Source: a virus (Duplodnaviria > Heunggongvirae > Uroviricota > Caudoviricetes). Taken from it: 32,000 nucleotides of DNA. The notes beneath the pieces are model-generated. The model saw nothing but the letters and a program-made list of their open reading frames with translations, was not told the origin of the DNA and did no database searches. The stretch lies in the IMG/VR virus record IMGVR_UViG_3300046542_000616. One strand, 5' to 3'. Below are positions 1,822 to 32,000 of the stretch, piece after piece (the stretch's first letter is position 1; the number at the start of each line of letters is the position of its first letter). The position numbers and the translations under genes were made by a program.

Positions 1822-1916
1822 GTGATTGACCTGGAGCAGGCCCTCACGTGCTTGCCGCAGGGGTCGGTGCTTTGACCGAAGGTCAGGCTAGGCTGTCACC
1901 CGAAAAAGGAATCCCC

Positions 1917-2519
1917 ATGAACAAAGAACGCGCCATTCAACTGATGCACCTGCTCACCGCCAGTGTCGGTGGCACTGTTTCCGACATGAAGCTCATGACC
2001 CTGCTGTATTTCGTTGAGCGCAAGGTCTTTGAGAAATACGCAAGCTTCATCGTCCTTGATGAATTCGTCTCCGGTGCCAAGGGCCCCGTCCTGGAATGCT
2101 CCAGCACGATCATCGCCGGTTACGAGGACGTGCGCCTGACCAAGATCTTCAGGCAGCCGGCCAGTGCCGTAAGTCCACTGGGTGTGGCCCTGAAGGTGCT
2201 GAGCCTCAAAGAGCCGGTTCACGACCTGACGACTGAAAACCGCGCCTTCGATTGCTTGAGCGAAGCTGACCACGGGTGCATCAGCGAGGTCTTGGCGACC
2301 CTGGGTCGTTTGGGGGATGATGAGATCATGGCGTACGCCACCGATCCACAGCACTGCCCGGAATGGGTTAAGCCTGAGGTCGAGGGCGTCCTGGTGCCTA
2401 TTGCACCGGAAACATTGATGGGTCATCTGAACTTTAATGAGCAGGACATTGCGTTCTATGCCCAGGAAATCCAGTACTGGAAGTTCATCAATACGCACTC
2501 GCTGTTTGCCACTGATTAA
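1917..2519 (+). CDS. Panacea (DUF4065)/SocA-like antitoxin-domain protein (tentative)
   Basis: The start was moved to ATG 1917, which has an AAGGA RBS at 1906-1910. MKLMTLLYFVERKVFEKYASFIVLDEFVSGAKGPV resembles the Panacea signature (KLxKLLYxxx...F.A...GPV). The family call is from memory of that motif only. Confidence 0.5.
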   Translation: MNKERAIQLMHLLTASVGGTVSDMKLMTLLYFVERKVFEKYASFIVLDEFVSGAKGPVLECSSTIIAGYEDVRLTKIFRQPASAVSPLGVALKVLSLKEPVHDLTTENRAFDCLSEADHGCISEVLATLGRLGDDEIMAYATDPQHCPEWVKPEVEGVLVPIAPETLMGHLNFNEQDIAFYAQEIQYWKFINTHSLFATD

Positions 2520-6180: not shown

Positions 6181-6421
6181 AAGGTACATAAGCTATCAAC
6201 AACTAGATCAATCCGGTAAAGCCAGATCAGCCAATCGATTAAAACACGAATGAATGTCGAACAACATGGTGTGAAACGAACCAATCGCATGATCAATACA
6301 TGAATGAATGCCGAACAACCGACTGCATTTATAATGAAGAAAAAATCAGTGGTTTTTGTGGTGCGGGCTCAGTCTCCCGTGCCAAAATCAGTTATATGTA
6401 GTTTTTTGCAGAGGGCTCGTA

Positions 6422-8947
<2,526 letters not shown>

Positions 8948-13393: not shown

Positions 13394-13740
13394 GTGGGTT
13401 CATCCTTCTCGGGTTTAGCAGGGGCTGATCGGGTGGCCCTCTGGCGTTCTCTACTCTGCAATTTGAGCAACTGCAGGGGTGAAAGCTCCTGTTTGGGCAA
13501 GAACGTATTGAGTTGCTCCACCAAGTCAAGAGCCGTCAGGATGGCCGCCAGGGTATTGAGCTGGACACGACCTTTCTCCGCCGCAACCACGACCTTGCGA
13601 GTCACGCCAATACGTTCCGCCACCTCAGCTTGGGTGAGGCCGGCATTGAGCCTGGCCTGCTGAAGGCGTTGACCGATCTCTTCGGCGATGGCGTCTGGCG
13701 TTAAATCTTTGAACACGTTAATGACCCCTTTATGGGTCAC
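13387..13740 (-). CDS. hipB: HipB-like XRE-family HTH antitoxin/repressor
   Basis: The HTH segment is LTQAEVAERIGVTRKVVVAAEKG. There is no in-frame ATG: the start is GTG at 13740, or possibly GTG at 13716. It is translationally coupled to hipA, and palindromic operators lie upstream. Confidence 0.85.
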   Translation of the reverse strand: MTHKGVINVFKDLTPDAIAEEIGQRLQQARLNAGLTQAEVAERIGVTRKVVVAAEKGRVQLNTLAAILTALDLVEQLNTFLPKQELSPLQLLKLQSRERQRATRSAPAKPEKDEPTW

Positions 13741-17251: not shown

Positions 17252-18367
17252 TTAAAGCAGGCTGGCCTGATCAGGCACATCCTCTTGCGTGGCGGAATGG
17301 TCTTCCTGATCATAGTGGGCCACCGGATCCGCCTCGATATAGGTTCCCTTGAGCAGCTCAGACTTGATTTTAAGGGCTGCCGCACCTTTAAGCCCTGTCA
17401 CCATCCAGCGATGATCGCGATTGCGCACTATGGCCCATCCCGGCTCGATGTAGGTCTTGCTCTCATACTCCTGCAGCCGCTTGTTGAAATCAGACTTGAA
17501 CCTGCGCTCGACCGAATCGTAAGTCGACTTGCTGCCTGAAAGGCTGTGGTAGCTCTCCAGGAGCAGGTTAAACACTCCGTCCCGGTGCGAGGCAATGAAG
17601 GGCATCAATTTCTTGCCGTAGGAGTCCAGCGAATCCCATATCTCGAAGGGCACCAGAGTGGTGTTCACTCCATCAAACAGCAGAGCCATCATGTCGTCGA
17701 GCTCCACCATTAGCCGGCGCGACTGGCCCTGGGTCGCATTGCGATTGATAAAGCTCAGCGAGATCTCAAAGGGCTCCTTGTTGTTATAGCAATCCATGAT
17801 CATCGGCAGGTATTCGCTGTAGCGGTTGGTCACGCTCTGCTTGAGGAAGTTGCCATCGGGCAGCAACTCAAGGTCTTTGCGCGTGAGCACGTTGTACAGG
17901 CGGGCCAGCATGGACTTGCTCGCGATCTTGACGCTGCCGGCCTCCAGGTCTTCGAGCATGGTGCGGATGCGCGTGCGGTTGGGCCCCGAGTCCTTGATGT
18001 CCAGCCAGCCCAGCGCTTCGGTCATTAGGAAGGGCACTGGCTTGGTCAGCGAGCGACCTCGAGCCTTCACCAGGATGCGGGTAAACAGCGTCTCGTGGTC
18101 AACGGTCAGCTGCGGGCCCTTGTACTTGACGGTGCCGCCGAGGGAGAAGATGTCAGTCCATTCGTCATAGCGGCCCTTGGACTTGATCGCCGCAAAGAGC
18201 GCGCTGCGGACAATGGGATTGGCCTGCTCGTGAAACTCTTCGTTGGTCAGGGGGAGAACACCCTGGGCCGAGGCCAGGTCGAAGCCTTTGAGAAGCTTGG
18301 TGCGTCGATCACCAATCGTTTGAGTCAACTCTGTCGGATTCAAGATCTTGGTTTCTTGTACCGACAT
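17252..18367 (-). CDS. trfA: TrfA-family plasmid replication initiator
   Basis: - 371 aa with an AGGAG RBS.
- PIVRSALFAA...VKYKGPQLTVDHETLFTRIL...FLMTEALGWL parallels RK2 TrfA (from memory: DIARSALFTT...ITYTGVELRADDDELVWQQVL...FYELCQDLGW).
- ...ALLFDG...KLMPFIASHRD parallels VVLFAG...RMFDYFSSHRE.
- An iteron array lies adjacent. Confidence 0.85.
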   Translation of the reverse strand: MSVQETKILNPTELTQTIGDRRTKLLKGFDLASAQGVLPLTNEEFHEQANPIVRSALFAAIKSKGRYDEWTDIFSLGGTVKYKGPQLTVDHETLFTRILVKARGRSLTKPVPFLMTEALGWLDIKDSGPNRTRIRTMLEDLEAGSVKIASKSMLARLYNVLTRKDLELLPDGNFLKQSVTNRYSEYLPMIMDCYNNKEPFEISLSFINRNATQGQSRRLMVELDDMMALLFDGVNTTLVPFEIWDSLDSYGKKLMPFIASHRDGVFNLLLESYHSLSGSKSTYDSVERRFKSDFNKRLQEYESKTYIEPGWAIVRNRDHRWMVTGLKGAAALKIKSELLKGTYIEADPVAHYDQEDHSATQEDVPDQASLL

Positions 18368-18490
18368 TGGCGGGCTCCTGGTGATCGATGAATGGGTAAC
18401 CGAAGTATATATTTTGAAAGCGCTAGTGAAAGGCTCTGGTTAGATCGGTTTGTTATTTACAGGCCCATGATGCGAGCCAGCGGTTTAAAA

Positions 18491-18552
18491 ATGCGATGTT
18501 CGCTGAACGAATTCCGATGTTTCCTGAGCGGGTTCCGATAACTGCTGAGCAC
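18491..18552 (-). repeat. three reverse-orientation iteron-like repeats between the rep start and the direct iteron array
   Basis: Reverse complements read CGTTCAGCGAACATCGCAT (18491-18509), CGCTCAGGAAACATCGGAAT (18511-18530) and GTGCTCAGCAGTTATCGGAACC (18533-18552). These match GC(T/A)CAGCAAACATCGG. Confidence 0.8.
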
Positions 18553-18661
18553 CCAGGCACGCAGCAGGCCACAGGGAGGGAGACATAAGGAGAAGATCGT
18601 TCATTCGGCCTTTAGGCCGCCTACGGTTTTTCTTCGTATCGCTACAGGCCACGTAATACGT

Positions 18662-19612
18662 GGCGCTCATGGAATATCGGGACAGATTACGGGTGCCGTT
18701 CATCGCCGCCTCGCAGGCGCACAGAAAACATCGGCATCTCAAGGCCTGGGCCAGTCGTCAGAGATCCGTGGCACCCATCCATGAAAGCCTTTAAAACCGG
18801 GGCGCTCAGCAGATATCGGGACATCTATGCGACACCGGCGTCACGGGGTAAATGTGGACAGATACCCGACTTGGGCTGGAAAAGAGGCGCTAATAGGCGA
18901 ACAGCCCTACAAGCAAATGACAGTACAGGCTGAAGGCCACGGAATACGGGGCGCTCAGAGAATATCGGGACACTTATGTGACACATTGAATGGCGGTCAA
19001 ATGAGACGGATCGAGGAAGCACGATGGCTTGGTGGGGCCTTCCACCTGCAGGTGGACAGGCCACTGAGGGCCAAATGTGGACAGATACCGGCACTTTTCA
19101 GCCCAGGCGCACAGCAAACATCGGGATTTACCTGGAAGAAACGAAGGTGAGCAGTCTCCACGACCAGTTATTGAGGGCACCGGCACCTATCGGCTGACTC
19201 GACCAGGTCTTTAATCTGGACAGATTCCGGGTGTCCGGAGGGCCAAAGGCGTCTTTTTGGCCTGTGAGGGGCTTGATCCTGGCTGATAGCAGTCCGATGG
19301 ACGATGTGGTACATGGCCGGAGCCCTTATAAACCGTGGCGCTCAGCTAATATCGGGACAGATTTAGGCCATGACAGAGGGATGCAGGCTAGGGAGGTGAT
19401 TTACATGCTCGTCGGCCTGCCGTCCTGGTGAAAGGTCGCCAAATATGGACAGATTCCATGCCATGACCTGGCTTAAGGGCCAGATAAACTCAGGCGCACA
19501 GCAAATATCGTTCGATTTGAGGCCAAACGAATCCTTCGATCAGGATCCTGGCCGAGGCGCTGTCCATGCAAATGTGGACAGATACCAGACATGCTCAGCA
19601 ACCATCGGCCTT
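18662..19612 (+). repeat. direct iteron array of oriV (two related repeat classes sharing a GGACAGAT core)
   Basis: - Class B, GGCGC(T/A)CAG...A(T/C)ATCGG(GACA...): 18662-18690, 18716-18740, 18801-18829, 18950-18978, 19106-19131, 19337-19366, 19493-19518, 19591-19612.
- Class A, AAATGTGGACAGATACC: exact copies at 18850-18866, 19073-19089 and 19570-19586; variants at 19211-19228 and 19441-19457. Confidence 0.9.
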
Positions 19613-19729
19613 CGCTCATGAAACATCGTGTTTTTGCTGGGCAGAGGCCGGATCGAGAAGAAAAGCCTTATTAATCAGTGCAAAAAGCTGTTTTAGCAGG
19701 CGAGGGGAGGGTGGAAAAAATGACGGATT

Positions 19730-19836
19730 GATCATTATTTAACCAAAATATGGTGGCATTTAAAATTATTGAGAAGAAACAATCGGTTAAGTCACTTATA
19801 CCAATCCATCCACAGTGTATGCACAGCATATCCACA
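19730..19836. promoter_or_regulatory. AT-rich segment and DnaA-box-like sites of oriV
   Basis: - AT-rich tract around 19730-19790: ATCATTATTTAACCAAAATATGGTGGCATTTAAAATTATT.
- CCATCCACA at 19806-19814 (7/9 to TTATCCACA).
- ATATCCACA at 19828-19836 (8/9).
- A further ATATCCACG at 19972-19980. Confidence 0.7.
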
Positions 19837-19866
19837 GCTTTTATACAGTTTTTTCCACTGTTTTTT

Positions 19867-19923
19867 GATGTTTCTTGTGCGGTGACCGATGTTTGCTGAG
19901 CGGTGACGATGACTCCTGAGCAG
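19867..19923 (-). repeat. three reverse-orientation iteron-like repeats distal to the DnaA boxes
   Basis: Plus strand reads GATGTTTCTTGTGCGG (19867-19882), CCGATGTTTGCTGAGCGG (19886-19903, reverse complement CCGCTCAGCAAACATCGG) and GACGATGACTCCTGAGCAG (19906-19923). One more direct copy, GCGCTCAGCAAACATCGGCGGG, lies at 20193-20214. Confidence 0.75.
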
Positions 19924-20062
19924 ACTACGTTATCTGGTGTGCATCTGGCGATGTCTGCCGTGCAAATTTTGATATCCACGGAATCTGGTTCGATGCCTGC
20001 TGTGCAATGTATAACTTTCTAGCCAGGGCTAGCGCGACCTGCGGCCAATTTGGCGATCCTCC

Positions 20063-20162
20063 TAACCCCAAGGTAACCCCGTATCTCTAACCCGCCATCA
20101 CCAGGCTCTTGATCCCGTAGATAATAAAGCAAAGCTTTAACCCTTTTTTTGATGCTTAACCC
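20063..20162. repeat. five dispersed copies of TAACCC within 100 bp
   Basis: TAACCC at 20063-20068, 20074-20079 and 20088-20093; TTAACCC at 20137-20143 and 20156-20162, the last two each followed by a T-run. Confidence 0.6.
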
Positions 20163-20366
20163 TTTTGTCGCGCATCACGCACGCGAGGCAACGCGCTCAG
20201 CAAACATCGGCGGGTGGGAAGCCGGCAAAGCCTTAATTTTGAAGGCAAACCAACGGTTTTAAATTCTCTGCCAGGTCGAATTTGGTTTTAACCTGTGGCA
20301 CAATAAGGCACATATTGACAGTTTCCAGTCTTTCAACTGGACGTTTCATTCCCAAGGATTTGCACG

Positions 20367-20918
20367 ATGCAGAAAAGCGCGGTAACGACGAGCAGGCGAT
20401 CTGCCTCGGCAGCCTTCAGCATTCAAGTAATCAACACGAGCCTGGTCAACATCGCGTTTCGCTTGATGTTTGTCCGGGATATCAGCGGCCTGCTGGTGGT
20501 CGTCAGTCAGGACGACTGCATTCGACAAGTCGCCTTCACCGACGAAGAGGTTGGCGATGACGTGCAAAGCTTCCTTGCCATCCAAGATCCTGCTGCCGTG
20601 GCTGCCAAGGTGATCTCCACCCATCCGGTGCGTGAGCTGGATGATGAGCAGTTCTTTGATAGCGTTGAGCAGAATCTTCGCTCGCTCAATGAGCGGTGCG
20701 TGATTTCCAATGAAGCCTTCGGCGATCACATGTCCATGGTGGATCTATACCGAGAGAACATCAGTTCCGAATGCCTGACCTCGTACCTGATTCTGGAGAA
20801 CCTCCAAGACGTCGTTGAGAACAGTCAGGTGCACCAGATTATTCCGGAGGAGATTCATTTCTGGAAAGCCATCTGGAAACCCATCGTCAACAAGGCTTCT
20901 GCCATGAGCGGCCAATAA
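20367..20918 (+). CDS. hypothetical acidic protein
   Basis: AAGGA RBS 9 nt upstream of ATG 20367. Third positions are strongly G/C-biased in this frame. The N-terminal ~30 aa are of low plausibility, so the true start could be internal (ATG 20466). Confidence 0.55.
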   Translation: MQKSAVTTSRRSASAAFSIQVINTSLVNIAFRLMFVRDISGLLVVVSQDDCIRQVAFTDEEVGDDVQSFLAIQDPAAVAAKVISTHPVRELDDEQFFDSVEQNLRSLNERCVISNEAFGDHMSMVDLYRENISSECLTSYLILENLQDVVENSQVHQIIPEEIHFWKAIWKPIVNKASAMSGQ

Positions 20919-20930
20919 TCAGGGGGTTTC

Positions 20931-21431
20931 ATGAGTACCGTAAGAGCCATTGAAAACGCATACATCAAGACAGCCAAGCGCAAGTGGGACAGGGTGTACT
21001 GGGCCCTGGATCTGCATGACACCTGCATCAAGGCCACCTATGAGGCGAACAAGCCCCACACGTACGAATGGATCAACCCGTACGTCAAAAATGCTCTGAA
21101 GCGCCTGCAGGCTCACCCTGAGACCTGTTTGATTCTGTGGAGCTCCGTGCACGAAGCCGAGAAGGTGCACTACCTGAATTTCTTCGCCAATGAAGGCATT
21201 CATGTGTCGGGCTTCAACCACAACCCGTTTGAGACGGGAAGTGAGTCCTGCTGCGTGGATGAGAAGTTCTACTTTTCGATCCTGGTGGATGACAAGGCCG
21301 GCTTTGATCAGAGTGAGTGGCTGCACATCCCAGACTTCGTCGACTACATTCGTCAGGAATACCCACCAGTCGTGAAGGCTGCGAAGAAGACCATTCCCGA
21401 CGCGGAACTGGACGCCACCACCCTGGCCTAA
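20931..21431 (+). CDS. hypothetical protein, possibly HAD-fold phosphatase/nucleotidase-like (weak)
   Basis: 166 aa. WALDLHDT near the N-terminus, LILWSS and ILVDDKAG loosely resemble HAD motifs I, II and IV, although motif I is non-canonical. AGGGGG RBS. Confidence 0.6.
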   Translation: MSTVRAIENAYIKTAKRKWDRVYWALDLHDTCIKATYEANKPHTYEWINPYVKNALKRLQAHPETCLILWSSVHEAEKVHYLNFFANEGIHVSGFNHNPFETGSESCCVDEKFYFSILVDDKAGFDQSEWLHIPDFVDYIRQEYPPVVKAAKKTIPDAELDATTLA

Positions 21432-21448
21432 CCACTGGAGCTTGACTG

Positions 21449-22048
21449 ATGGATTCATTGAAGGAAGTTCTGGCGGCTGAAAACCAGCAGGTGGCTCGCC
21501 AACTGATCTGTGCCCAGGGGTACAACAAGGCGGTGGCAAACGAGTGGTCAAGCCATCCCGTTGGCGTCATGACCATGGTTGTCATGACCCCTACGGATGC
21601 TGACTTTTTCGGGGACAGCTACCTCAACTGGGTGGCCGTTGCTCCTGCTCGCTGGACGGTGCTGTGGCAGAACGTCTATGACCTGCCCGATGGGCAGAAT
21701 GTGGCGATCAAGCTGCACGAATATCAGTCCTCAACCGACCCTGTCGACAATGCCGTGATCATCGCGAGCCTGGCTATGTCGAGTGCTGAAATCCGTGGGC
21801 TGGTGCTGTTTGCTGTCGACAACGGTGTCCGTCTGGAAAACTGCCGCGTTGACTGCCCGTGGATGAGTCAGAGTGTGTTTGACGCGCTTGCGCATGACTT
21901 TGGCAAGGAGTGGGCCGAGAAAGCCCTGTCCACGGTAGGCGTGGTGCCTGACGAGCTCGTGAAGGGTGTCAGCCTGGGTCGCCTGCTCAACCTGCCGGTG
22001 AAAGACCTCGCTTACATGCCGGCCCGCGTAGCCGCCATGCTGCAGTAA
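21449..22048 (+). CDS. hypothetical protein
   Basis: 199 aa with a GGAG RBS. It is the third gene of a plus-strand three-gene unit. Confidence 0.65.
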   Translation: MDSLKEVLAAENQQVARQLICAQGYNKAVANEWSSHPVGVMTMVVMTPTDADFFGDSYLNWVAVAPARWTVLWQNVYDLPDGQNVAIKLHEYQSSTDPVDNAVIIASLAMSSAEIRGLVLFAVDNGVRLENCRVDCPWMSQSVFDALAHDFGKEWAEKALSTVGVVPDELVKGVSLGRLLNLPVKDLAYMPARVAAMLQ

Positions 22049-22131
22049 CTGACTGGAAGCTATCGGCGACTCACGGACGACTTAAGGATCAGGCATGTCT
22101 GAACTCATTAAAAACAGGATGGTGGCAGAGT

Positions 22132-22923
22132 CTAAGGGGAGGGCCCGTCGTTGATTTCGCACCTTGGTGCGGCAGGAACGGTCACCATCCCCTTGGCGTC
22201 GACCTGTAGCAACGTGACGACCTTGGCTGGATCCAGCGCGTCGTAGTAAAACTCATCACCATTGCTGGCCTTGTACACACGGGAAGCCAGCACCAGGGCG
22301 GTGGTGACGTGTTGCGGTGCAGCTTCGTATATCGCGGTGGTGACGGCGTGATCGAGTGTTAGTCGGAGCATGCGCTCAGTTGCATTACGCGCCTGATTGC
22401 CTTCCTCGTAATCCTTCAGTACCCGACGAGCCGTACTCTTGAGGCTTCGAGCATCGGCCTTGTAGGCATAGTCCATGGGGAATAGGTGATTCACCTCGGC
22501 GCTCATGGCCCTTATCAGTGAATAGCCCAATGCCGATGACGATGCCTTAACGCATTCGCCACGGAAACTCTCGCGGCGCTGTTGATTGATAGCAGGATTG
22601 AGCAGGTGCCCGAACTTCTCTTGCAAGTGGTCTTCGTAAAACCTCGCATTAAGAAGCGTGCCTTTGGCTACAAAAATCTCACCGCTTTCATCTGGATGGC
22701 CAGTGATGATGTCGGCTTCGTCGTAGCTGTAGTCGAGAACCACGTCCTTATCGTCGGTGCCTTCGATGTAGTACTGCAGGAAATCCAGGTCTGTGCCCAG
22801 GTAGAAACCGCCACGCCCGGTGTTCACCGAACCCAGGGTCAAGTCCACCGGCCAGCGCATCTGGAGCGTATGAGCCTGGAGGTTCTGCAGGTTGTAGGAA
22901 ACGATCCTGTGGCCGACTGGCAT
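22132..22923 (-). CDS. hypothetical protein, last gene of the large-paralog operon; lacks the LEDALGL tail
   Basis: 263 aa with a GAGG RBS. It starts 20 nt after the stop of the paralog at 22944-24044. Confidence 0.7.
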   Translation of the reverse strand: MPVGHRIVSYNLQNLQAHTLQMRWPVDLTLGSVNTGRGGFYLGTDLDFLQYYIEGTDDKDVVLDYSYDEADIITGHPDESGEIFVAKGTLLNARFYEDHLQEKFGHLLNPAINQQRRESFRGECVKASSSALGYSLIRAMSAEVNHLFPMDYAYKADARSLKSTARRVLKDYEEGNQARNATERMLRLTLDHAVTTAIYEAAPQHVTTALVLASRVYKASNGDEFYYDALDPAKVVTLLQVDAKGMVTVPAAPRCEINDGPSP

Positions 22924-22943: not shown

Positions 22944-24044
22944 TTAAAGGCCCAACGCGTCTTCGAGCATGTATGCCTTGCTCCATCGCAGGCCAAGCGC
23001 CGTCTCAACAGCGAACACCGTTTTGACGAAGGTGTTTTTATTAATGGGCGTCGTGTTTTTAAGCATCTCATCGATCTCGTTTCGATTGGCGCCCAGCTTT
23101 ATTTTTTCCGCGCAGTCATTCTCAGCACCAAGCTCGTCAAAAACCCACTTGAGCTTGATCCGCTCAGGCGGCTTCTGAGCTATCGTCTTGTCTGCGTCGA
23201 TGCCTTTAACCTCGGCTTTTGCGACAACCAGGCCAGACTGAACAATTTCGCAGTGCCAGAAGTCTGCCTTGTAAAATTCTGATTGGGTTGTGTGAGCGGT
23301 TGCTTTGGCAATCGCCTGAGACAGCGTAGGGGCAGCGGCAATAAGGAATCGAAATCCTTTTGTTAGGTTAGATGAAAATTCGATCCGATATTGGCCGGCA
23401 AAACAATCATCGCGTAGCCAAGTCTTTTGAGCCTCGCTGAAAAGCTCGGTTTTTCCGGCAATTACCCTGGACTCGTATGTTTCCTGAAGGCATTCAGGCA
23501 GTTCGATGTCCTTTCCGGTCAAGTCGATCAGCCAGCCTATGTCGAAACCTTCATAAGCGTGGAAGTATTGGTAGATGGCTTCTTGCTGATCAGGCGATGA
23601 TTCGTTGTACAGAATTGCAATATCGACCCACCTGACGTTTGCAGTCATTTTTGCTTGGAACATAAAGTAGCTGCATAGCTGATCCAAGCTGGATGGCTGA
23701 AATTTTCCATGAAGTTCTTCGAAGCGAGCGTCTTCTTTGGCGGCTATTTCTGCAAGCTCAATTTTTGTCACAAATGGAGCGTTATGGATCCTTGGTTTTA
23801 AGATTGAGAACAGTCGCTCAAAGGTTAGTTCTGACATCGATTTGAGTGGCGCAATTATCTCAGGATGAATGCTGCCAGGAAGGTCGAAGTGGTTCTCGCT
23901 CAGACGATCCAATGCATCGGCGTCGGGCACGACCTCTTCGCCAAACAAGGTGGTGAACCTTGCAGGGTTTCGATAAAACGCACTGTTGATGAATACATGG
24001 CTGTATGCGCTTGGAATTGGCAACATCTCTGGTTTATTTGACAT
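22944..24044 (-). CDS. large LEDALGL-tail family paralog 1
   Basis: The start was moved to ATG 24044 (MSNKPEMLPIPSAYSHVFIN...) by alignment with the paralog N-termini. It shares IAPL..MS..TF, LYN.S.DQQEAIYQYF, WLRDD, AAPTLSQAIAKATAH and KLKW, and ends ...WSKAYMLEDALGL-TAA. Confidence 0.8.
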   Translation of the reverse strand: MSNKPEMLPIPSAYSHVFINSAFYRNPARFTTLFGEEVVPDADALDRLSENHFDLPGSIHPEIIAPLKSMSELTFERLFSILKPRIHNAPFVTKIELAEIAAKEDARFEELHGKFQPSSLDQLCSYFMFQAKMTANVRWVDIAILYNESSPDQQEAIYQYFHAYEGFDIGWLIDLTGKDIELPECLQETYESRVIAGKTELFSEAQKTWLRDDCFAGQYRIEFSSNLTKGFRFLIAAAPTLSQAIAKATAHTTQSEFYKADFWHCEIVQSGLVVAKAEVKGIDADKTIAQKPPERIKLKWVFDELGAENDCAEKIKLGANRNEIDEMLKNTTPINKNTFVKTVFAVETALGLRWSKAYMLEDALGL

Positions 24045-24125: not shown

Positions 24126-25145
24126 TTAAAGGCCCAATTCGTCTTCAAGCCGGCTCACCTTCGACCACTGCATACCAAGTGCTTCTTCGGTGGCATACAG
24201 CGTCTTGAGGAACTCAGTCTTGGTGATGCCGCCCTGGTCGTTCTTTGGGCGAAGGTCAGCATGTCGCCAGGTAATTCTCGGGTCTTTGTCCTTCACGTGA
24301 GGGTGATTGCCGGAGGTGAACTTGACCTCACCCGTTGCAACAAACTGCCCTAGCTGGGCGAGACTGATGTGGGCAAGCGTGCCTTTGAAGTTGATGGCTC
24401 CCTGGATGGCACGAGCAATTGCAAGCTCCAGTGTCGGTGCTGTGCTGATCAACAAGTCGCGATGATAAGAGTCGACTCCATACACCTCGAATTGGTTAAT
24501 AACGAAATCCTCTCTGAGCCACCGGTCTTTGGCCACGTCGAAAGCCTGCTTCTCCCCATTTTCGATTCTGGTTTGCAAGGGCTTGTCGAAGGCGGGCGGG
24601 AGGTCGATAGCCGGCGCCTGGGTCGCTAGAAGGATGGCAAGGTCTCTGTTCTTTACGATACTAAAGTATTGGTACAAAGCCTCCTGCTGGTCGTCTGTGG
24701 ACGCGTTATAGAGATCTGCCAGTCGAGCCCATTCGACATAGCGGTTTACTCGGGCGGAGAGGAGCAGATAGCTCATGACCTGGTCTGTCGAAGCAGGATG
24801 GGATGCCTCAGTAATGTTGCCGTATTCCCTGCGCGCCATATCGGCGAGGTTGTCACGGCTGGTGATGATTTCATTTTGAAACTTAGGCTTGAGCACCGAG
24901 CAAAGCGCCTCAAACGTCTCGCCAGTCATGGCGGCCAGCGGAGCCATGATCGTGGTATCGATTTTGTGAGGGCCGTTTTGGTTTGAGTCATCGAAATCGA
25001 TGTCAGCCACCACATGCGGCCCGACCCTTTCTGAGTCCTTATGCTCATCTGGATGATGGCAGTCGAGGTTTTCGTAGAGCAGTCGAATGTACGGATAGGC
25101 TTCCACGCTGGGTGGCGTGATGTGGTTTGGGCTGGTCGATGACAT
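24126..25145 (-). CDS. large LEDALGL-tail family paralog 2
   Basis: 339 aa with an AGGAG RBS. It shows PPSVEAYPYIR, MAPLAAMTGETF, LYNASTDDQQEALYQYF, WLRED and TAPTLELAIARA, and ends ...QWSKVSRLEDELGL-TAA. Confidence 0.85.
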   Translation of the reverse strand: MSSTSPNHITPPSVEAYPYIRLLYENLDCHHPDEHKDSERVGPHVVADIDFDDSNQNGPHKIDTTIMAPLAAMTGETFEALCSVLKPKFQNEIITSRDNLADMARREYGNITEASHPASTDQVMSYLLLSARVNRYVEWARLADLYNASTDDQQEALYQYFSIVKNRDLAILLATQAPAIDLPPAFDKPLQTRIENGEKQAFDVAKDRWLREDFVINQFEVYGVDSYHRDLLISTAPTLELAIARAIQGAINFKGTLAHISLAQLGQFVATGEVKFTSGNHPHVKDKDPRITWRHADLRPKNDQGGITKTEFLKTLYATEEALGMQWSKVSRLEDELGL

Positions 25146-25220: not shown

Positions 25221-26315
25221 TCACAGGCCCAGCGCATCTTCCAGGAGTTGCACCTTGCTCCACTGAACGCCCATGGCTTTCTCAACGGTGAAGAGTGTCT
25301 TGATGAAGTCGTCTTTTTTGAGCGGCGTGGTGAATCTCGACAGGGTCTCGATCTGCTGTTCTGTAAGGTTTTGTGTCCTGATTTTCTCAGCAATTTCCTC
25401 CTCACAGCCAAGTTGATCCACAAGCCACAGGGGTTTCACCGGACGTCTGGCAAAATCGATTAAATGGCTGTCATCACCTATGGACTGAAACCTGGCGCCG
25501 GCAATCCTTAGTCCGCCTTGCGTAATGTCGCAGAAACAGAAGTCAAGCGAGTATTCGGTTTCTTTGAGATGGGCAGTGGCTTTGGCCAATGCCTCGCATA
25601 ACGTCGGAGCAGTAGCGACAAGCGTTTTAAATGCGTCATTCACGATGTCTACGCGGTACTGTTGGATATAGGCATCATCGCGCAACCACCGCTGCAGCAC
25701 CTGGCTGTAGTGGTAGTCATTGCCGTTATGCACCCTTGTTTCCAATGGCTCGACGAGTGATTCTGGCAGGTCGAATTCCTTGGCCTTGTGCTCAAGTAAC
25801 CGCGCAAGCTCGAGCCCATGGTAATGATTGAAGTATTGCCAGATGGCTTGCTGCTGGCCTTTCGCAGATCGATTGTAAAAATCGACAAAATTGCCCCAAT
25901 GGATATTTTTCTTTGCGAGCGTTGCTTTCGCAATGGCGAACGACTCAAGCTGCGTTGGCGAATACGTTTCAAGGTGTGGATCAGACTTCAGGAGTTCTAC
26001 CAGGTCATTTTGCGAGAAGCGCTGTAGGCTCTCTCGATTCCTGATTTCATAGTCGTCGTATTTAAAGCTTAGGATTGAGGCCAGGGTAGCGAACGTTTCA
26101 TCGCTCATCGCTTCTAACGGGGCAATGCGGGTCAAGTCAATGTTGCCTGGCGAACCAAATCGGTTGTGCATGATATTGGAATGCAGGGTGCGATCTCCAG
26201 CCGCATCAAGGCCATCAGCAGTGGTAAAGCCAGTAGGATCACCACGGTAAATGATGTTGATGAAGGGATAATCCCTCAAGGCTGGCTTGATCAGCTCGGT
26301 TGGGCCTGCGATCAC
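25221..26315 (-). CDS. large LEDALGL-tail family paralog 3
   Basis: GTG start at 26315 with an AAGGAG RBS 7 nt upstream. It shows YPFINIIY, IAPLEAMSDETF, QQQAIWQYF, WLRDD and TAPTLCEALAKATAH, and ends ...QWSKVQLLEDALGL-TGA. Confidence 0.85.
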   Translation of the reverse strand: MIAGPTELIKPALRDYPFINIIYRGDPTGFTTADGLDAAGDRTLHSNIMHNRFGSPGNIDLTRIAPLEAMSDETFATLASILSFKYDDYEIRNRESLQRFSQNDLVELLKSDPHLETYSPTQLESFAIAKATLAKKNIHWGNFVDFYNRSAKGQQQAIWQYFNHYHGLELARLLEHKAKEFDLPESLVEPLETRVHNGNDYHYSQVLQRWLRDDAYIQQYRVDIVNDAFKTLVATAPTLCEALAKATAHLKETEYSLDFCFCDITQGGLRIAGARFQSIGDDSHLIDFARRPVKPLWLVDQLGCEEEIAEKIRTQNLTEQQIETLSRFTTPLKKDDFIKTLFTVEKAMGVQWSKVQLLEDALGL

Positions 26316-26358: not shown

Positions 26359-27447
26359 TTAAATCCCCAGCGCCTCTTCCATGTGCCTCACCTTGTTCCA
26401 TTGCACGCCCAAGGCCTTCTCAACCGCGAACAGGGTCTTGATAAATTCGTTTTTTTTGAGCGGCGTGGTGTACTTAGTCACTGCCCCGATCTCCGCACCA
26501 GGCTCATACTGAACCCACAGTGGCTTGACTGGGCGAGATGCCCAGTCCAAAAGGCGGTCGTCGCTGGAATTGATTGACTCAAGCGTTGCCCAAGCGACTA
26601 TCCGACCGCCTTGGAGAATATCGCAGTAGTCGGTATCAATCGGATACTCATTGTCCTTCAGGTACGCTGTCGCTTTGGCAAGTATTTGAGCCAGGGTCGG
26701 CGCGGTCGCAATCAGTGTTCGGGTCACCGGGTTTACGATGTCAAAGCGGTACTGCTGCTGATACGCATCATCGCGCAACCACTTCTGAAGAACCTGGCTA
26801 TAGCGGTATTCATTACCTTTATGCGATCTCGACTCAAACGGCTCAATTAGACAATCGGGGATGGTGAGATCCTTGGCTTTGTGCGCGAGCAGAGATTCAA
26901 GCTCAAGACCGTGATATGTCTCGAAGTATTGGCGGATGGCTTGCTGCTGGTCATCGGCAGACTGGTTGTAGAGGCTAACCAGGTTGCCCCAGTGGACGCT
27001 TTTGGAAAACGTGGCCCTGGCCAAGAAGTAGGCCTCAAACTGGGCTCGAATGTAGGGCTCACGACCTTCGTCATTTGGCAGGTGGTAACTGCTGTTTTTG
27101 TATGTGAAATGCTCAAGGCTGCTGCGTTCACGTATGTCCGCGTCGTCACATTTGATGCCGAGGATTGAGGCCAGGGAAGCGAACGTTTCGTCGGTCATGG
27201 CACAATAAGGCGCCAATAGGGTATCAGTGATGTCCGCCGCAGAGCGGAATTGCGAGCTGTTGATCTTAGTTCGTCGCTCAGGATCACCTGCCATGCAGAC
27301 GTCCTCGTAGATGTCATCCTTTCCATCTTCTCCGGCCAGCACACAGTGAACCTTATCCGTAATGAACCGAGTGCGATCCCCTTGAAAGACGATGTTGATG
27401 AAGGGGTAGTTCTTCAAGTCAGGTGCGGTTAACTGGTGGGTGGTCAC
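26359..27447 (-). CDS. large LEDALGL-tail family paralog 4 (variant tail MEEALGI)
   Basis: The start was moved to GTG 27447 (VTTHQLTAPDLKNYPFINIVF...), which has an AAGGA RBS. This removes the overlap with paralog 5. It ends ...QWNKVRHMEEALGI-TAA. Confidence 0.8.
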   Translation of the reverse strand: MTTHQLTAPDLKNYPFINIVFQGDRTRFITDKVHCVLAGEDGKDDIYEDVCMAGDPERRTKINSSQFRSAADITDTLLAPYCAMTDETFASLASILGIKCDDADIRERSSLEHFTYKNSSYHLPNDEGREPYIRAQFEAYFLARATFSKSVHWGNLVSLYNQSADDQQQAIRQYFETYHGLELESLLAHKAKDLTIPDCLIEPFESRSHKGNEYRYSQVLQKWLRDDAYQQQYRFDIVNPVTRTLIATAPTLAQILAKATAYLKDNEYPIDTDYCDILQGGRIVAWATLESINSSDDRLLDWASRPVKPLWVQYEPGAEIGAVTKYTTPLKKNEFIKTLFAVEKALGVQWNKVRHMEEALGI

Positions 27448-27488: not shown

Positions 27489-28640
27489 TCAAAGCCCAAG
27501 CGCATCTTCCAGCTTGGACACCCGGTTCCACTGAAGGCCCATGGTCTTCTCTACGAAGAACACTGCTTTGGTAAACTCCTTTTCCGAGACCTTTACCGTC
27601 TTGCTAAGTCGGAGATCGATTTCACTGACCTGCTGTTTAAGCTGACCGATGATCAGTGAATCCTTGGTGTTCTCGATTTCCTGCAGGAGCTTTTCGCCCT
27701 TAGCCCGCAAATTGCCTAGGTCTTCACCCAACTGCTCAAAATTCCACTTAAGCTTGTAGGGGGACATGATCATCTCGAACAAATCGGCATCATCAGGAAA
27801 GTCCTTCGCCATCTTGAACTCACCTTGAGCCAGGTATTTGCCTTGCTGACGCAGGACGATCAGGTCAGACACCATGGAGCCCGTGGCTTTTTCGACATAC
27901 GCGGTAGCCTTGGCAATGGCTTGGTTGAGCGTCGGAGCGGAGCCCAGCAGGAAGATCTCTTGTGTGCTGCGATGATAGGCGTCAACCCTGTATTGCTTGT
28001 GCAGGATGTCTTCACGAACCCATTGTTGCTGTAGATCACTGAATAAAAATTTCTCGCCATCAACGTCCTTGGATTGAAACGTCTCCTGGAGTTTCTCTGG
28101 AATGGTAATGGATACCGGTGGGGTGCTCATCAGCACACTCAGGTCACGGTTCATGCAGCGGAGGAAGTATTGATGAATCGCCTCCTGCTGGCCAGGCTCG
28201 GCGCCGTTGTAGAGCTCGGCAAGATGGCCCCAGTGAATGTCCTGGGTGGTCAGCGCTTTGGACAGGATGTATGTCTGAAGCTGATCGACGGTATACGACT
28301 CCTCATCATGGAATCGATTCAGGTTGCTGGCCGTAATTGTCTCAAGGGTCTGCCGGCTCACGATGTCTGATCCGAAGGCGCGAGGCTGCAGGATTTTCAT
28401 CAGGCGGGCGAAGGTTTCGTCTGACATCGCCTGGACGGCGGCCACGGCGGGATCGCTCACGTAGGAGGGTTCCTGAAAAAAGCTGACCTCGAATTCTTCG
28501 TCAGCCTTTGAATTAGGGGACTGATCTTGCTGTATCACGTTGTGCTTGAACGATACGTTGTGATGGAAATGCACGGCATTGATGAACGGATAGGCGTCCA
28601 GGCTAGGTACGGTAAGGCTGTCCGGTCTGCTCGTGGTCAT
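27489..28640 (-). CDS. large LEDALGL-tail family paralog 5
   Basis: The start was moved to ATG 28640 (MTTSRPDSLTVPSLDAYPFINAV...), which has an AGGA RBS. It ends ...QWNRVSKLEDALGL-TGA. It is the first gene of the minus-strand operon and is divergent from the small-family operon. Confidence 0.8.
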   Translation of the reverse strand: MTTSRPDSLTVPSLDAYPFINAVHFHHNVSFKHNVIQQDQSPNSKADEEFEVSFFQEPSYVSDPAVAAVQAMSDETFARLMKILQPRAFGSDIVSRQTLETITASNLNRFHDEESYTVDQLQTYILSKALTTQDIHWGHLAELYNGAEPGQQEAIHQYFLRCMNRDLSVLMSTPPVSITIPEKLQETFQSKDVDGEKFLFSDLQQQWVREDILHKQYRVDAYHRSTQEIFLLGSAPTLNQAIAKATAYVEKATGSMVSDLIVLRQQGKYLAQGEFKMAKDFPDDADLFEMIMSPYKLKWNFEQLGEDLGNLRAKGEKLLQEIENTKDSLIIGQLKQQVSEIDLRLSKTVKVSEKEFTKAVFFVEKTMGLQWNRVSKLEDALGL

Positions 28641-28765
28641 GTTTGCGATCCTGATCTGGTTTTCCTCATTATCGGCGCTGAGACTGCGCTCGAACAAGCA
28701 ATGATGCAGGGGTTTGATGCGACGGCTGCTCATAAGGGACAATACGTTATGGCCTGGAGTGACTC

Positions 28766-29203
28766 ATGGAATTGCAACAGAAGAAATACGGTTATAACTT
28801 GATTTTTTGCGAGCAGCGCAAAGACCAGACATACCATTGGAAAGATATTACGAATTTTGCGGCAGCCGACACCGCTGAGGAAGCTGTAGAAAATTTGTTG
28901 AAGCTCATGCGTGGATCGACGGAGCTAAAAGACATGTTTAAAACGAATGCAACTGTCTTATTAACCAAGTTTGAGTTAATCGGAAGCGGCAAAAAACTAC
29001 TTAGTTTCGAAACACGCAGGATGGGAACAGTCGTTGATAATTTGGCAAATATACTTATAAGCGGAAGTATGGTTGGAGATCCTTGGAAAAACATCGTCTT
29101 TGACTATGTGGATCGGGAACTTCTAAGTGCCTTGGTGAAGACATTCCCAGATCAAAAGCAGTTCTTTAAAGGCAAGGTTTTAGAAGGCTCCCTAGGTCTG
29201 TGA
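28766..29203 (+). CDS. small LEDALGL-tail family paralog S1 (tail LEGSLGL)
   Basis: 145 aa with a GGAG RBS. It shows FAAADTAEEAVENL and ...LLSALVKTFPDQKQFFKGKVLEGSLGL-TGA. Confidence 0.8.
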   Translation: MELQQKKYGYNLIFCEQRKDQTYHWKDITNFAAADTAEEAVENLLKLMRGSTELKDMFKTNATVLLTKFELIGSGKKLLSFETRRMGTVVDNLANILISGSMVGDPWKNIVFDYVDRELLSALVKTFPDQKQFFKGKVLEGSLGL

Positions 29204-29236
29204 TTGGGCGTGGAGATAAAAGTTAGGAGCATAGCA

Positions 29237-29662
29237 GTGGATTATGACAAAAAGAAATTCGGGTTCACAATTTGGTTCCACGACCGGAACAAGAATCTTA
29301 CGATCAACTGGTATGATTTTCCGGAATTTGCCTGTGCCGACACGGCGGGCGAGGCTATGGCTAATTTGGTCGATATTCTCGATGGATCTATTCCGTTGTG
29401 GCAGTTGCCGGACAAAGGAAGCAAGGCAGAATTGACCAGGATTGAGTTGCACGGTGATGGCAAGAGGCTGTTCAGGCTCAATGGTCTGAAAGAGGTCAAG
29501 AACCAGGCGCAACCTTGGCTTAAGACCATCGTTACTGTGCAGTGGAAATATACGGTATTCGATGACGTAAATCGCGAGCTCCTGGATGCTTTGGTGCAGA
29601 CGTTTCCGGAGCAGCAGCGGATTTTCAAGGGTAAATTTTTGGAAGATGCTCTGGGCCTCTGA
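29237..29662 (+). CDS. small LEDALGL-tail family paralog S2
   Basis: The start was moved to GTG 29237 (VDYDKKKFGFTIWF...), which has an AGGAG RBS 7 nt upstream, by alignment with S1 and S3. It ends ...FPEQQRIFKGKFLEDALGL-TGA. Confidence 0.8.
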   Translation: MDYDKKKFGFTIWFHDRNKNLTINWYDFPEFACADTAGEAMANLVDILDGSIPLWQLPDKGSKAELTRIELHGDGKRLFRLNGLKEVKNQAQPWLKTIVTVQWKYTVFDDVNRELLDALVQTFPEQQRIFKGKFLEDALGL

Positions 29663-29692
29663 CCTGGTGGATTTCTTCTGAGGAATAAAGCG

Positions 29693-30136
29693 ATGGAAAA
29701 CGCGAAAAACAATTTTGGTTATATATTGGCCTTTAATGAGCGACTGAGTGGCGTAGGAAACCTGATAAAACATCACTACGTCTATGATTTCGCCGCCGCA
29801 CAAACGGCTGAGGAAGCTGTCGACAACCTGGCGAAGGTGCTTGAAGGGTCGATTCCGTTTAAGCAGGATCTTGATAAGGGCCTCAGAGACAAAACCAAAC
29901 TTGTCAGCCTTGAGTTAATGGGCGATGGCAAGAAGCTGTTCAAATTGCATTCCATTGAAGGAACGGAGAGCTTGTTCGGTTTGCCCTGGTTCAAGAAGCC
30001 GAGCTTGAGTGTTCACTGGGGTTGGATGGAATTTGAGCGCGTGGATCGGAATCTGCTGGATGCCTTGGTGAAGACGTTTCCGGAGCAGAAGCAGATCTTT
30101 AAGGGGAAATTTCTGGAAGACGCCCTGGGCCTCTGA
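29693..30136 (+). CDS. small LEDALGL-tail family paralog S3
   Basis: 147 aa with a GAGGA RBS. It shows FAAAQTAEEAVDNL and ends ...FPEQKQIFKGKFLEDALGL-TGA. Confidence 0.85.
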   Translation: MENAKNNFGYILAFNERLSGVGNLIKHHYVYDFAAAQTAEEAVDNLAKVLEGSIPFKQDLDKGLRDKTKLVSLELMGDGKKLFKLHSIEGTESLFGLPWFKKPSLSVHWGWMEFERVDRNLLDALVKTFPEQKQIFKGKFLEDALGL

Positions 30137-30175
30137 TTCAATCTAAGTGCCGAAGCATTAAGGAATGCCAGAACG

Positions 30176-30562
30176 ATGAACCAAAGCCGATTTTCTTGCC
30201 GGCTGTATTTTAGCCGAGTGAGCATCACAGGCCGGCGAGACGTCTCCCTGATCCCTAATTACGTAGTCGGTACTTCCCTGGACGAAATTGTCAGCCAAGT
30301 GGCCAAGCTGTTTGATGGTTCCCGCCCGTTAGCAGGTGCAGGAAGCTCGGATGAGGCCCTATTCAGAGTGGTGATCGAAGAGATGGAGGATGAGTTGCTG
30401 ACTCTTTCGGTGTTCGACGATGGCGAGCACTGCCTGATCAACTGGGAGGATTCGACATTCCACGGAGTGGGCAAGGAGATGGTCAATGCACTGACAGCAG
30501 TCTTTCCAGATCATGTGGATCAATTCAAGCGCTTTGCACTGGAAGGGGCGCTCGGTCTCTGA
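30176..30562 (+). CDS. small LEDALGL-tail family paralog S4 (divergent; tail LEGALGL)
   Basis: 128 aa with an AAGGA RBS. It ends ...ALTAVFPDHVDQFKRFALEGALGL-TGA. The central W..(D/E)..F position is conserved with S1-S3. Confidence 0.75.
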   Translation: MNQSRFSCRLYFSRVSITGRRDVSLIPNYVVGTSLDEIVSQVAKLFDGSRPLAGAGSSDEALFRVVIEEMEDELLTLSVFDDGEHCLINWEDSTFHGVGKEMVNALTAVFPDHVDQFKRFALEGALGL

Positions 30563-30588: not shown

Positions 30589-31710
30589 CTACAGCCCCAA
30601 AGCATCCTCAAGGTCATGCACCTTAGACCATTGCAGGCCTAAAGCCTTCTCGACGCGATACACGGCCTCTCGGAAGTCTTTCAGGGGCACTGGGATCGGT
30701 TTGTCCAAAAGCGCCTCCAGCCTGGCGACGTTAGCCATGATTTTATCCTCTTCGCTCCTGAACGTATTGAGCGAGCGCATGGCGTCCTTCTTGATGCCTT
30801 GAACGTAGGAACGATCCGCACCCAATTGATCAAGGTTCCACTTGAGCTTGGTGATAATGCCTTTGCCGGCAATCACTTCAGCATGGGCCACGGGTTCGGC
30901 GAACTGAAGGATATCCAGGCGCCATTTGCCAGCCGCATATTCATCATCCTTGAGGCACAGCGAAGCCTTGGCGATGGCCTGGTCAAGCGTCGGCGCACCC
31001 CCAATAAGGTAGCGAGCATTGAGTGACGTGAGCACGATGTCGATGCGGTATTGCTGGTGAAACCGATCCTCTCGAAGCCATTTCTGCATCACCTCACTGA
31101 AGTGGTACGCATCACCGTTTTTGGCCTTGGTCTGGAATTCCTCCTGAACACATCCTGGCAAGGTGATGGCGGGGCCAGTGGTGCCCAACAGGTCTGGAAG
31201 ATCAATGTCGTGATGATTTAAGAAGTATTTCAGGATGGATTCTTGCTGATCGGGGTCTGACTCATTGTATAGGGACGCCACCTTTGCCCACTGCACGCTT
31301 TTGGACATGTCAGCATGGAACATCAGGTAAGTCTGAAGCTGCCCGGCTGTATAGGGCCCGCAATCATCTTCCTCGTTCACGACATAACTCGGCGTTTTTC
31401 GGAAGGCCAGTGCCTCAAGGTCAGCCTTTGTCCTGATTTCAGTGTCGTAGATTGATGGCTTGAGCAGGGTGAAAAGGCTATTGAAAGTGAAGTCGCTCAT
31501 CGCGAGGAGCGGCGCAATGTGATGATTGCGAACACTGGCGGGAAAATCGAAGTATTCACTGGCAACTTTATCGTACGAATCGACGTCAGGCGCCCTGGCC
31601 TCACCGGTAGCGTCGGTGAACCCAGCAAAGTCCCTGTGGAACATCACGTTGATGAACGGATAGTCGCTGAGGCTGGGCGGATTCAGGCGGGCAGGGCGCT
31701 TGGCGGTCAT
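30589..31710 (-). CDS. large LEDALGL-tail family paralog 6
   Basis: 373 aa with an AAGGA RBS. It shows PPSLSDYPFINVMF, IAPLLAMSDFTF, DQQESILKYF, WLREDRFHQQYR and GAPTLDQAIAKA, and ends ...QWSKVHDLEDALGL-TAG. Confidence 0.85.
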   Translation of the reverse strand: MTAKRPARLNPPSLSDYPFINVMFHRDFAGFTDATGEARAPDVDSYDKVASEYFDFPASVRNHHIAPLLAMSDFTFNSLFTLLKPSIYDTEIRTKADLEALAFRKTPSYVVNEEDDCGPYTAGQLQTYLMFHADMSKSVQWAKVASLYNESDPDQQESILKYFLNHHDIDLPDLLGTTGPAITLPGCVQEEFQTKAKNGDAYHFSEVMQKWLREDRFHQQYRIDIVLTSLNARYLIGGAPTLDQAIAKASLCLKDDEYAAGKWRLDILQFAEPVAHAEVIAGKGIITKLKWNLDQLGADRSYVQGIKKDAMRSLNTFRSEEDKIMANVARLEALLDKPIPVPLKDFREAVYRVEKALGLQWSKVHDLEDALGL

Positions 31711-31837: not shown

Positions 31838-31876
31838 ATTATAGTCAATTATAGACCGATTATAGAGCGACTATAG
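31838..31876 (-). promoter_or_regulatory. four tandem copies of ATTATAG (gene-sense strand: CTATAAT/CTATAGT) at 10-11-bp spacing
   Basis: Plus-strand ATTATAG at 31838-31844, 31848-31854 and 31859-31865, and ACTATAG at 31870-31876. The array sits upstream of paralog 6 and overlaps the stop codon of paralog 7. On the sense strand each copy contains TATAAT (or TATAGT). Confidence 0.6.
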
Positions 31877-32000
31877 ACCAAGGGCATCTTCAAGGAGCAG
31901 GCCTTTGTGCCATTTCACACCAATCGCCTCCTCGGCAATAGCGATGGATTTCTCAAGGCGATCCTTGGTAAAGCCGAGTTTGAGATGATCGGTATCCCAG
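31871..32000 (-). CDS. large LEDALGL-tail family paralog 7 (C-terminal fragment; continues beyond the window)
   Basis: Hand translation of the minus strand gives ...IAIAEEAIGVKWHKGLLLEDALGL-TAG, with the stop at 31871-31873. The frame is open to nt 32000. Confidence 0.75.
   Translation of the reverse strand, partial: WDTDHLKLGFTKDRLEKSIAIAEEAIGVKWHKGLLLEDALGL

Follow-up and report, generated by a model that had tools for sequence, protein, structure and literature searches.

Four small genes within a large paralog array of a Pseudomonas-type megaplasmid, and the C-terminal heptapeptide common to both families

A stretch of 32,000 nucleotides from IMG/VR virus record IMGVR_UViG_3300046542_000616 (filed under Caudoviricetes), referred to as the window, carries a tandem array of large paralogous genes on the - strand, in which a group of four small genes (S1 to S4) is embedded on the + strand. 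What are these small genes, and how are they related to the large ones that encircle them? Based on profile comparison and on the order of elements in AlphaFold models, the small proteins are in all probability free-standing homologs of the C-terminal module of the large family. In addition, both families end in the same near-invariant heptapeptide, which is interpreted here, with somewhat less than even confidence, as a C-terminal address tag that would be read by a Dot/Icm-like coupling complex, S1 to S4 being minimal tagged substrates or competitors of the large proteins.

Small proteins and the C-terminal module of the large family

S1 to S4 form an operon of four co-directional paralogous genes with a size of about 130-150 residues each. 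Calls of open reading frames (ORFs) and their translations placed the four genes on the + strand at 28766-30562, against the strand of the surrounding array, exactly as a preliminary description of this DNA had claimed. The operon and its direct neighbours are the following (aa, amino acids):

28766-29203, + strand: S1, small paralog, 145 aa, end ...KGKVLEGSLGL, with GGAG 8 nt 5' of the ATG
29237-29662, + strand: S2, small paralog, GTG start, 141 aa, end ...KGKFLEDALGL, with AGGAG 6 nt 5' of the GTG
29693-30136, + strand: S3, small paralog, 147 aa, end ...KGKFLEDALGL, identical to P0001, the modelled protein
30176-30562, + strand: S4, the most divergent small paralog, 128 aa, end ...KRFALEGALGL, from the ORF and its translation
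28641-28765, no strand: divergent control region of 125 bp between large paralog 5 and S1
27489-28640, - strand: large paralog 5, 383 aa, start MTTSRPDSL..., end ...SKLEDALGL, divergent from S1
30589-31710, - strand: large paralog 6, 373 aa, end ...HDLEDALGL, convergent with S4
30589-31065, - strand: C-terminal module of paralog 6, residues ~216-373, in the register of hhalign and MAFFT

The start of paralog 5 at 28640 on the - strand fits exactly with the 125-bp divergent spacer described earlier, and the reported convergence with paralog 6 is seen in the stops of S4 (30562) and paralog 6 (30589), with a gap of 26 bp. A Shine-Dalgarno-like site lies before each of the four small genes, the spacing between the genes is 0-39 bp, and a terminator scan found no convincing terminator between them. 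For S2, an alternative start at TTG 29204 would give 152 aa; GTG 29237 is likelier, and other gene callers also gave 141 aa (P0012). S4 is only 25-30% identical to S1-S3 and 24-32% identical to its orthologs in loci L006 and L007, with the invariant Phe and Trp, the FP motif and the tail retained.

The homology between the small proteins and the C-terminal module is supported by hhalign, because the probability climbed as the alignments became deeper. It was 5% with 4 small versus 6 large sequences, 17% with 16 versus 13, 44% with 16 versus 20, 84% with 27 versus 48 (E 7e-6, 100 columns) and 87% with 35 versus 51. The deep alignments (84-87%) span 92-100 columns and run colinearly along the C-terminal ~110-150 residues of the large proteins. 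An unguided MAFFT alignment of the mixed sequences put the small proteins on the large module in the same register as hhalign, and all four segments which had been matched by eye in the preliminary description reappeared in this common register: the AxT..EA(V/I) helix start, the strand region (a strand hairpin), the block around the invariant Trp, and the last helix with LEDALGL. Distant members of the large family (AGARTFEEAVAYAT) bridge both forms of the helix-start motif.

The AlphaFold2 models point in the same direction. The S3 model (mean predicted local distance difference test, pLDDT, 80.7; predicted template modelling score, pTM, 0.77) consists of strands 8-18 and 24-36, helix 39-51, strands 68-77, 80-93 and 101-107, and helices 119-128 and 130-144. 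The model of paralog 6 (mean pLDDT 80.6) has a helical N-terminal domain at residues 14-215, followed by the module with strands 221-227 and 232-239, helix 242-255, strands 263-269, 272-281 and 287-291, and helices 343-356 and 361-370. Thus the order of the eight elements is the same in both, namely two strands, one helix, three strands and two helices, and in both models the first helix is capped by the AxT motif, with the invariant Trp placed in the fifth strand. The small proteins had been said to lack the N-terminal domain of the large ones, and this agrees with the model, where the ~215 N-terminal residues of the large protein make up a separate helical domain. A helical hairpin at residues 300-335 of paralog 6 is absent from the small proteins, and is variable in length or missing in other paralogs.

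It could be argued instead that only the tail is common, a terminal element of ~20 residues that was gained by shuffling or convergence, the colinear motif matches being chance. Several results weigh against the module homology and would suit such an origin: the tail is demonstrably portable among unrelated families (see below), profile-to-sequence HMMER between the families finds just the last 12-14 residues, the shallow profile comparisons reached 5-17% probability, and the hhalign signal without the tail is modest (12-32% probability, P ~1e-3) and was missed in one of six re-alignments. However, when 8-30 terminal columns were cut, the same region was still aligned with a score of 27-28 (P 1.2e-3), which was above all 150 column shuffles (mean 12.3, standard deviation 2.5) and all but one of the 150 block shuffles; a reversed alignment scored 11.3. 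When 8-27 terminal residues were cut and the sequences re-aligned, the colinear region was the top match in five of the six set-ups (P 5e-4 to 2.5e-3). For the enlarged set, residue trimming followed by re-alignment served as the tail control, since trimming of raw columns was distorted there by the long C-terminal extension of the homologs on plasmid pPL1. Together with the steady rise of probability with alignment depth, the identical order of the eight elements with sequence anchors on equivalent elements, and the distant members that link both helix-cap motifs, this makes a common tail alone improbable. The likeness, which the preliminary description required to reach beyond the last ~25 residues, does extend over the module. 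A domain map can be drawn for the two families, with an N-terminal helical domain, an autonomous C-terminal domain of ~130 residues and the terminal tag.

The small genes are real and under purifying selection. Independent metagenomes yielded four more lineages of related elements that hold orthologous clusters of small genes, with seven genes in L006, five in L007, four in L012 and one in L010/L011, and in every lineage the cluster is on the strand opposite to the large array encircling it. The L010 lineage is distant, with large proteins ~28% identical to those of the window and one opposite-strand small gene within the array, so the arrangement is old. The ratio of nonsynonymous to synonymous substitution (dN/dS) was 0.13-0.15 for the small genes S1 and S3 and 0.13-0.22 for the large genes, calculated for pairs with unsaturated dS, while dS was saturated in the remaining small-gene pairs. 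S1 and its L007 ortholog, for example, share 75% identity with a dN/dS of 0.15, and the very divergent S4 gave a value of 0.57.

These data also bear on the idea that S1 to S4 are decaying, non-functional leftovers of partial duplication in a recombining tandem array. Tandem arrays do produce partial copies, S4 is very divergent and the GC content of S1 is atypical, which would be expected of decay. On the contrary, all four frames are intact and each has its Shine-Dalgarno site, the dN/dS of S1 and S3 is low, the family has been kept in lineages as far apart as ~28% identity of their large proteins, the upstream control region is conserved, and the S3 model is confident. Such an explanation is extremely improbable, and pseudogene fragments are effectively refuted by the selection, the Shine-Dalgarno sites and the conserved spacer.

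That spacer (28641-28765) has a mean column identity of 80% across four loci, which exceeds that of the synonymous sites of the flanking genes. Three conserved hexamers were observed in it, TTGATG at 28714-28719 (+), GACAAT at 28738-28743 (+) and GATAAT at 28668-28673 (-), which could be candidate promoter elements, judged from their sequence; a promoter scan of the spacer left all three below threshold and made no call.

The small family is very rare. When 1.84 billion representative proteins were searched exhaustively with a profile, ~14 true members came to light, all with 121-155 aa and the tail except one member and one fragment. One protein from this search (P0032, 127 aa) keeps the FPEQK motif and ends in ...LKFGAPVFSVSR with no tag; it may result from a frameshift or be a naturally tag-less form, which could then serve as a control. 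The ratio of small to large genes was 4 to at least 14 for this element, and 7 with at least 5 (in 12.7 kb of L006), 5 to at least 10 and 1 to 11 elsewhere. A pairing of the toxin-antitoxin or effector-immunity kind was rejected, as the counts are not one-to-one and the small genes are grouped on the opposite strand.

The operon is AT-richer than its surroundings, as had been judged by eye, and modestly so (47.7% GC versus 53.1% for the window, among the lowest 1.3% of windows of equal size). S1 is the AT-richest small gene (41% GC) and accounts for most of this difference. The GC content at third codon positions of S2-S4 is 0.60-0.62, as in the large genes, so a foreign origin of the operon was rejected, with S1 alone deviating. 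No hydrophobic segment was found in any small or large protein; all are predicted to be soluble, and export by a Sec or lipoprotein route was rejected on this ground.

Both families are wholly unannotated. Neither had a significant match in Pfam, NCBIfam, PHROGs or PADLOC, in a sequence search of the PDB, or in Foldseek searches of the PDB and BFVD. In the PDB, the insignificant matches of the S3 and paralog 6 models coincided, being 5vrv (DUF2156) and GNAT-like folds (E 0.3-4). This coincidence is a weak, indirect hint that the two folds are alike, and is not evidence of membership in those fold families. No match was obtained by megablast of 10 kb against plasmids and phages or by tblastn against phages, and pattern scans of GTDB genomes, JGI metagenome contigs and IMG/VR gave no relatives. 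A homolog search with the mixed small and large alignment gave nothing new among the matches listed.

The terminal heptapeptide on related and unrelated proteins

The small and large families end in a near-invariant L-E-D-(A/E/D)-L-G-L-COOH, located at the end of the last helix. These seven positions are the most conserved part of both families, with column conservation of 0.86 and 0.83 versus 0.50 and 0.40 for the rest. Across sixteen paralogs the codons of the tail vary, with six in use for Leu, four for Gly and each of the three stops, and the downstream DNA is unrelated, so the constraint acts on the peptide and not on the DNA. For the same variation, a tail that is the by-product of a DNA element (terminator, repeat or cassette boundary) was rejected. 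No report of the motif was found in the literature searched with 'LEDALGL', or with 'DLGL' and 'megaplasmid'.

The tag is also present on proteins of other families. Within 216 kb of plasmid pBASL58 (NZ_CP032678.1; L016-L020, 394-610 kb), 23 ORFs have the strict tail and ~30 a looser one, of the form (L-E-x)-D-L-G-L, while 0.04 would be expected for the strict pattern in this stretch from its frequency at internal positions (5.6e-5). The tagged proteins of pBASL58 have 135-561 aa and belong to 20 BLAST clusters, and all but one of them share just the last 7-15 residues with the window families. The tag was not found in the part from 560 to 610 kb. On pMPPla107 (NZ_CP031226.1; L024, 614-655 kb), in a region syntenic with part of the pBASL58 stretch, 6 of 24 coding sequences end in x-x-D-L-G-L.

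Short genes that copy the C-terminus of an adjacent long paralog recur in unrelated tagged families of pBASL58. At 487690-489963 (L017), a protein of 188 aa corresponds to residues 381-561 of the 561-aa protein next to it (E 3e-24), and at 397368-400032 (L020) one of 152 aa corresponds to residues 256-358 of a neighbour with 358 aa.

We infer that the heptapeptide together with the preceding helix serves as an address tag read by one megaplasmid-encoded machine; its presence on many unrelated families speaks for a common machine that recognises it, and less for a partner that the two families of the window would have to themselves. In another explanation, S1 to S4 would be domain-only regulators: the module and the terminal helix would form a dimerisation or docking surface with the tag in the interface, and the small proteins would titrate the large paralogs or their hub. 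The folded module common to both families shows the same patches (AxT helix cap, invariant Trp, terminal helix), the tag is predicted to belong to a helix that packs well and not to a loose tail, the divergent layout of the promoters has been conserved, and the small genes are always within the large array, all of which would fit regulators well. Yet at least 20 clusters without the module bear the tag, so that it is not merely a family-specific interface, and the copy numbers of small and large genes are unmatched. Regulation by the domain alone is accordingly regarded as unlikely.

The arrangement recalls the eukaryotic microProteins of the Id and LITTLE ZIPPER type, single-domain paralogs which titrate their multi-domain relatives. 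In both cases small, separately encoded proteins derive from one domain of a larger family and could act via that domain. The proteins described here differ in being bacterial, plasmid-borne and present in several tandem copies, and in that the tag is also found outside the family.

Candidate readers of the tag

The best candidate for the reader would be the substrate-recruiting coupling complex of a Dot/Icm-like (MPF_I) type IV secretion system. In this proposal, the large paralogs would be a diversifying set of translocated proteins, and S1 to S4 would be minimal tagged substrates that retain only the tag-adjacent domain. S1 to S4 would moreover be rivals of the large paralogs for the receptor, because they have the same tag, a different gene dose and their own promoter. 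Furthermore, it would be understandable that every short paralog here and on pBASL58 is a C-terminal fragment, because only partial duplicates keeping the tag would stay addressable.

A Dot/Icm-like system is presumed on this element from its relatives. In PLSDB, pBASL58 and pMPPla107 are typed as MPF_I, and pPL1 is without MPF typing. A complete Dot/Icm-like system is encoded by pMPPla107, and protein secretion by the system was stated as unknown (PMC3136466). Transfer of pMPPla107 depends on this system (PMC4105467). The Legionella protein DotM binds acidic signals at the C-terminus, and transport is abolished when the terminal Leu is changed to Glu (PMC5802825). The tag resembles the signals of Legionella and Coxiella Dot/Icm (type IVB) effectors, read by DotL-DotM-DotN, in its extreme C-terminal position with acidic and then hydrophobic residues, and in being common to many unrelated proteins of one replicon. 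Acidic residues with a hydrophobic C-terminus were found on many unrelated proteins, comprising the window families and those of pBASL58 and pMPPla107.

A number of observations weigh against a Dot/Icm-like reader. No secretion-system gene was seen in the window or in its flanks of ±10 kb. Legionella-type signals are degenerate, extend over ~20-30 residues and are thought to be disordered. They are loose and compositional, whereas the tag here is a near-invariant heptapeptide, predicted to be helical and packed, which lies at a helix end with pLDDT 86-96 in the S3 AlphaFold2 model. Because it is near-invariant and ends a confident helix, the tag resembles the ligand of a specific peptide-binding pocket. 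The known effectors belong to intracellular pathogens, while the present element would be a conjugative plasmid of free-living Pseudomonas. The distribution of the tag is also uneven: it was absent from 50 kb of pMPPla107 (420-470 kb), from a 50-kb sample of an MPF_I-typed IncP-2-like megaplasmid of P. aeruginosa, and, on the closest cultured relative, pPL1, from a sample of 50 kb. The two tandem large-family homologs of pPL1 (NZ_CP143488.1; L015 18389-21020; E 1e-63 to 1e-66 against the family profile) have degenerate tails, ...LDDGLAF and ...VDDGLSL, and no small-family member lies within ±20 kb of them. In ~100 kb of distinct sequence round the array and origin of this element, only the small and large families carry the tag.

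A stronger form of the proposal would make the tag the export signal of the Dot/Icm-like system of the pMPPla107 family. It would then mark a large share of the hypothetical proteins, including both window families, for injection, in the course of conjugation or apart from it, into recipient bacteria or target cells of another kind, with S1 to S4 as minimal cargo. This is possible, and we hold it with considerable doubt. Megaplasmids of this family bring ~1 Mb of mostly hypothetical genes to Pseudomonas. For Dot/Icm-like protein export, stated as unknown since 2011 (PMC3136466), the tag would give a list of candidate substrates as well as a target of seven residues for mutagenesis, in cultured strains that are amenable to genetics. 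Among natural carriers of the tag, the small proteins are the simplest, and they could be handy probes.

The tag may alternatively be a degron or adaptor tag like ssrA, read by ClpXP, ClpAP or another protease, which would keep megaplasmid proteins short-lived, and S1 to S4 would be co-degraded or act as decoys stabilising the large paralogs. The ssrA degron is a short C-terminal peptide (ending in ...ENYALAA), whose recognition by ClpXP is assisted by SspB. The two endings are alike in the non-polar end with a free carboxylate, in the upstream polar or acidic residues and in a dedicated machine, which is a proposal in our case; the free hydrophobic C-terminus after acidic residues is constrained here at the peptide level. 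A gene for an SspB-like ClpXP specificity factor even lies amid the tag-rich region of pBASL58 (486734-487135; L017 42735-43136). Its linkage is not conserved, however, for no SspB-like gene is annotated at the syntenic place of pMPPla107, a place that still has tagged genes. The arrays have no protease gene linked to them, LGL is to our knowledge not a documented C-motif of ClpX, and seven near-invariant residues across unrelated proteins exceed what known degrons need. Moreover, ssrA is added co-translationally, whereas the tag is genetically encoded on dozens of full-length proteins. A degron is thus judged distinctly unlikely, less probable than the domain-only regulators. Even as a degron or docking peptide, the tag would act across the plasmid as a label for post-translational control, and such a label was not found described for plasmids in the literature searched.

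Another likeness is to the Bep effectors of Bartonella, in which a BID domain and a charged tail make up a two-part C-terminal signal for VirB/VirD4. Like the Beps, the proteins of the window are tandem paralogs with variable N-terminal parts, a conserved C-terminal domain of ~100-140 residues and a short tail, and some members are little beyond the C-terminal domain. The differences are that BID is an all-helical bundle with a positive tail and a type IVA system, while strands and helices with an acidic and hydrophobic tail are predicted here. No Pfam match to BID was found in either family.

The replicon and the genes around the array

The remaining members of the large array and the replication gene of the window are as follows:

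22944-24044, - strand: large paralog 1, ORF
24126-25145, - strand: large paralog 2, ORF
25221-26315, - strand: large paralog 3, ORF
26359-27447, - strand: large paralog 4, ORF
31871-32000, - strand: the following large paralog, C-terminal part, truncated at the window edge (351 aa in L001), end ...LLLEDALGL
17252-18367, - strand: TrfA-type initiator, 49-51% identity to TrfA of Pseudomonas megaplasmids

Large paralogs 1-4 all terminate in L/M-E-D/E-A/E-L-G-L/I. Beyond the window the array continues in a longer contig (L001) with at least seven further paralogs, giving at least 14 large genes in total.

Judged from its gene content and repeats, the window is part of an uncultured ~1 Mb Pseudomonas megaplasmid of the pMPPla107 family, near its TrfA/iteron origin. 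This assignment was made because of the identity of TrfA, the iterons, the matches of a MoxR-like ATPase, a 199-aa gene adjoining the array (53% identity to a pPL1 gene), and the contigs bearing the small and large families, which reach 0.95-1.28 Mb. The non-coding region of ~1.8 kb adjoining the rep gene (18490-20215) contains at least 12 copies of the 17-bp iteron CGCTCAGCAAACATCGG in both orientations as well as 44-54-bp repeats. The megaplasmid probably has its vegetative origin here, and the array of paralogs always lies next to it, also in L012 and L013. The MoxR-like ATPase is the best marker tying the window to the pMPPla107 family, as its top four plasmid matches are pPL1 (P. silesiensis), a plasmid of Pseudomonas sp. 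FeN3W, pBASL58 and pMPPla107, all of 0.9-1.17 Mb.

This MoxR-like AAA ATPase (4500-5750) adjoins an 863-aa protein (6356-8947) with a DUF2201 metallopeptidase-like N-terminal domain and a VWA-like C-terminal domain, the middle of which is long, acidic and of low complexity, with PGEG and GQ repeats (~7300-7960).

Between the origin and the array (20367-22923), a conserved trio of genes for 183, 166 and 199 aa on the + strand and one for 263 aa on the - strand were identified. The trio is also beside the array in the distant L010 lineage. None of these four genes had a family match, except for a weak match of the 166-aa protein to a phosphoheptose-isomerase-like PHROG.

About 2.4-3.2 kb past the right end of the window, an 82-aa PapB-like transcription regulator (Pfam PF03333; PHROG regulator, E 3e-14; L001 13942-14190) is encoded together with a conserved 165-aa protein (L001 13366-13863). 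This pair breaks the large array at one and the same place in three loci (L001, L007 and L012), and the regulator may control the array.

A HipA/HipB toxin-antitoxin pair at 12074-13740 (-), with HipA 67% identical to copies on Aeromonas plasmids, and a SocA/Panacea-domain antitoxin-like gene at 1848-2519 (+) are typical plasmid-maintenance cargo.

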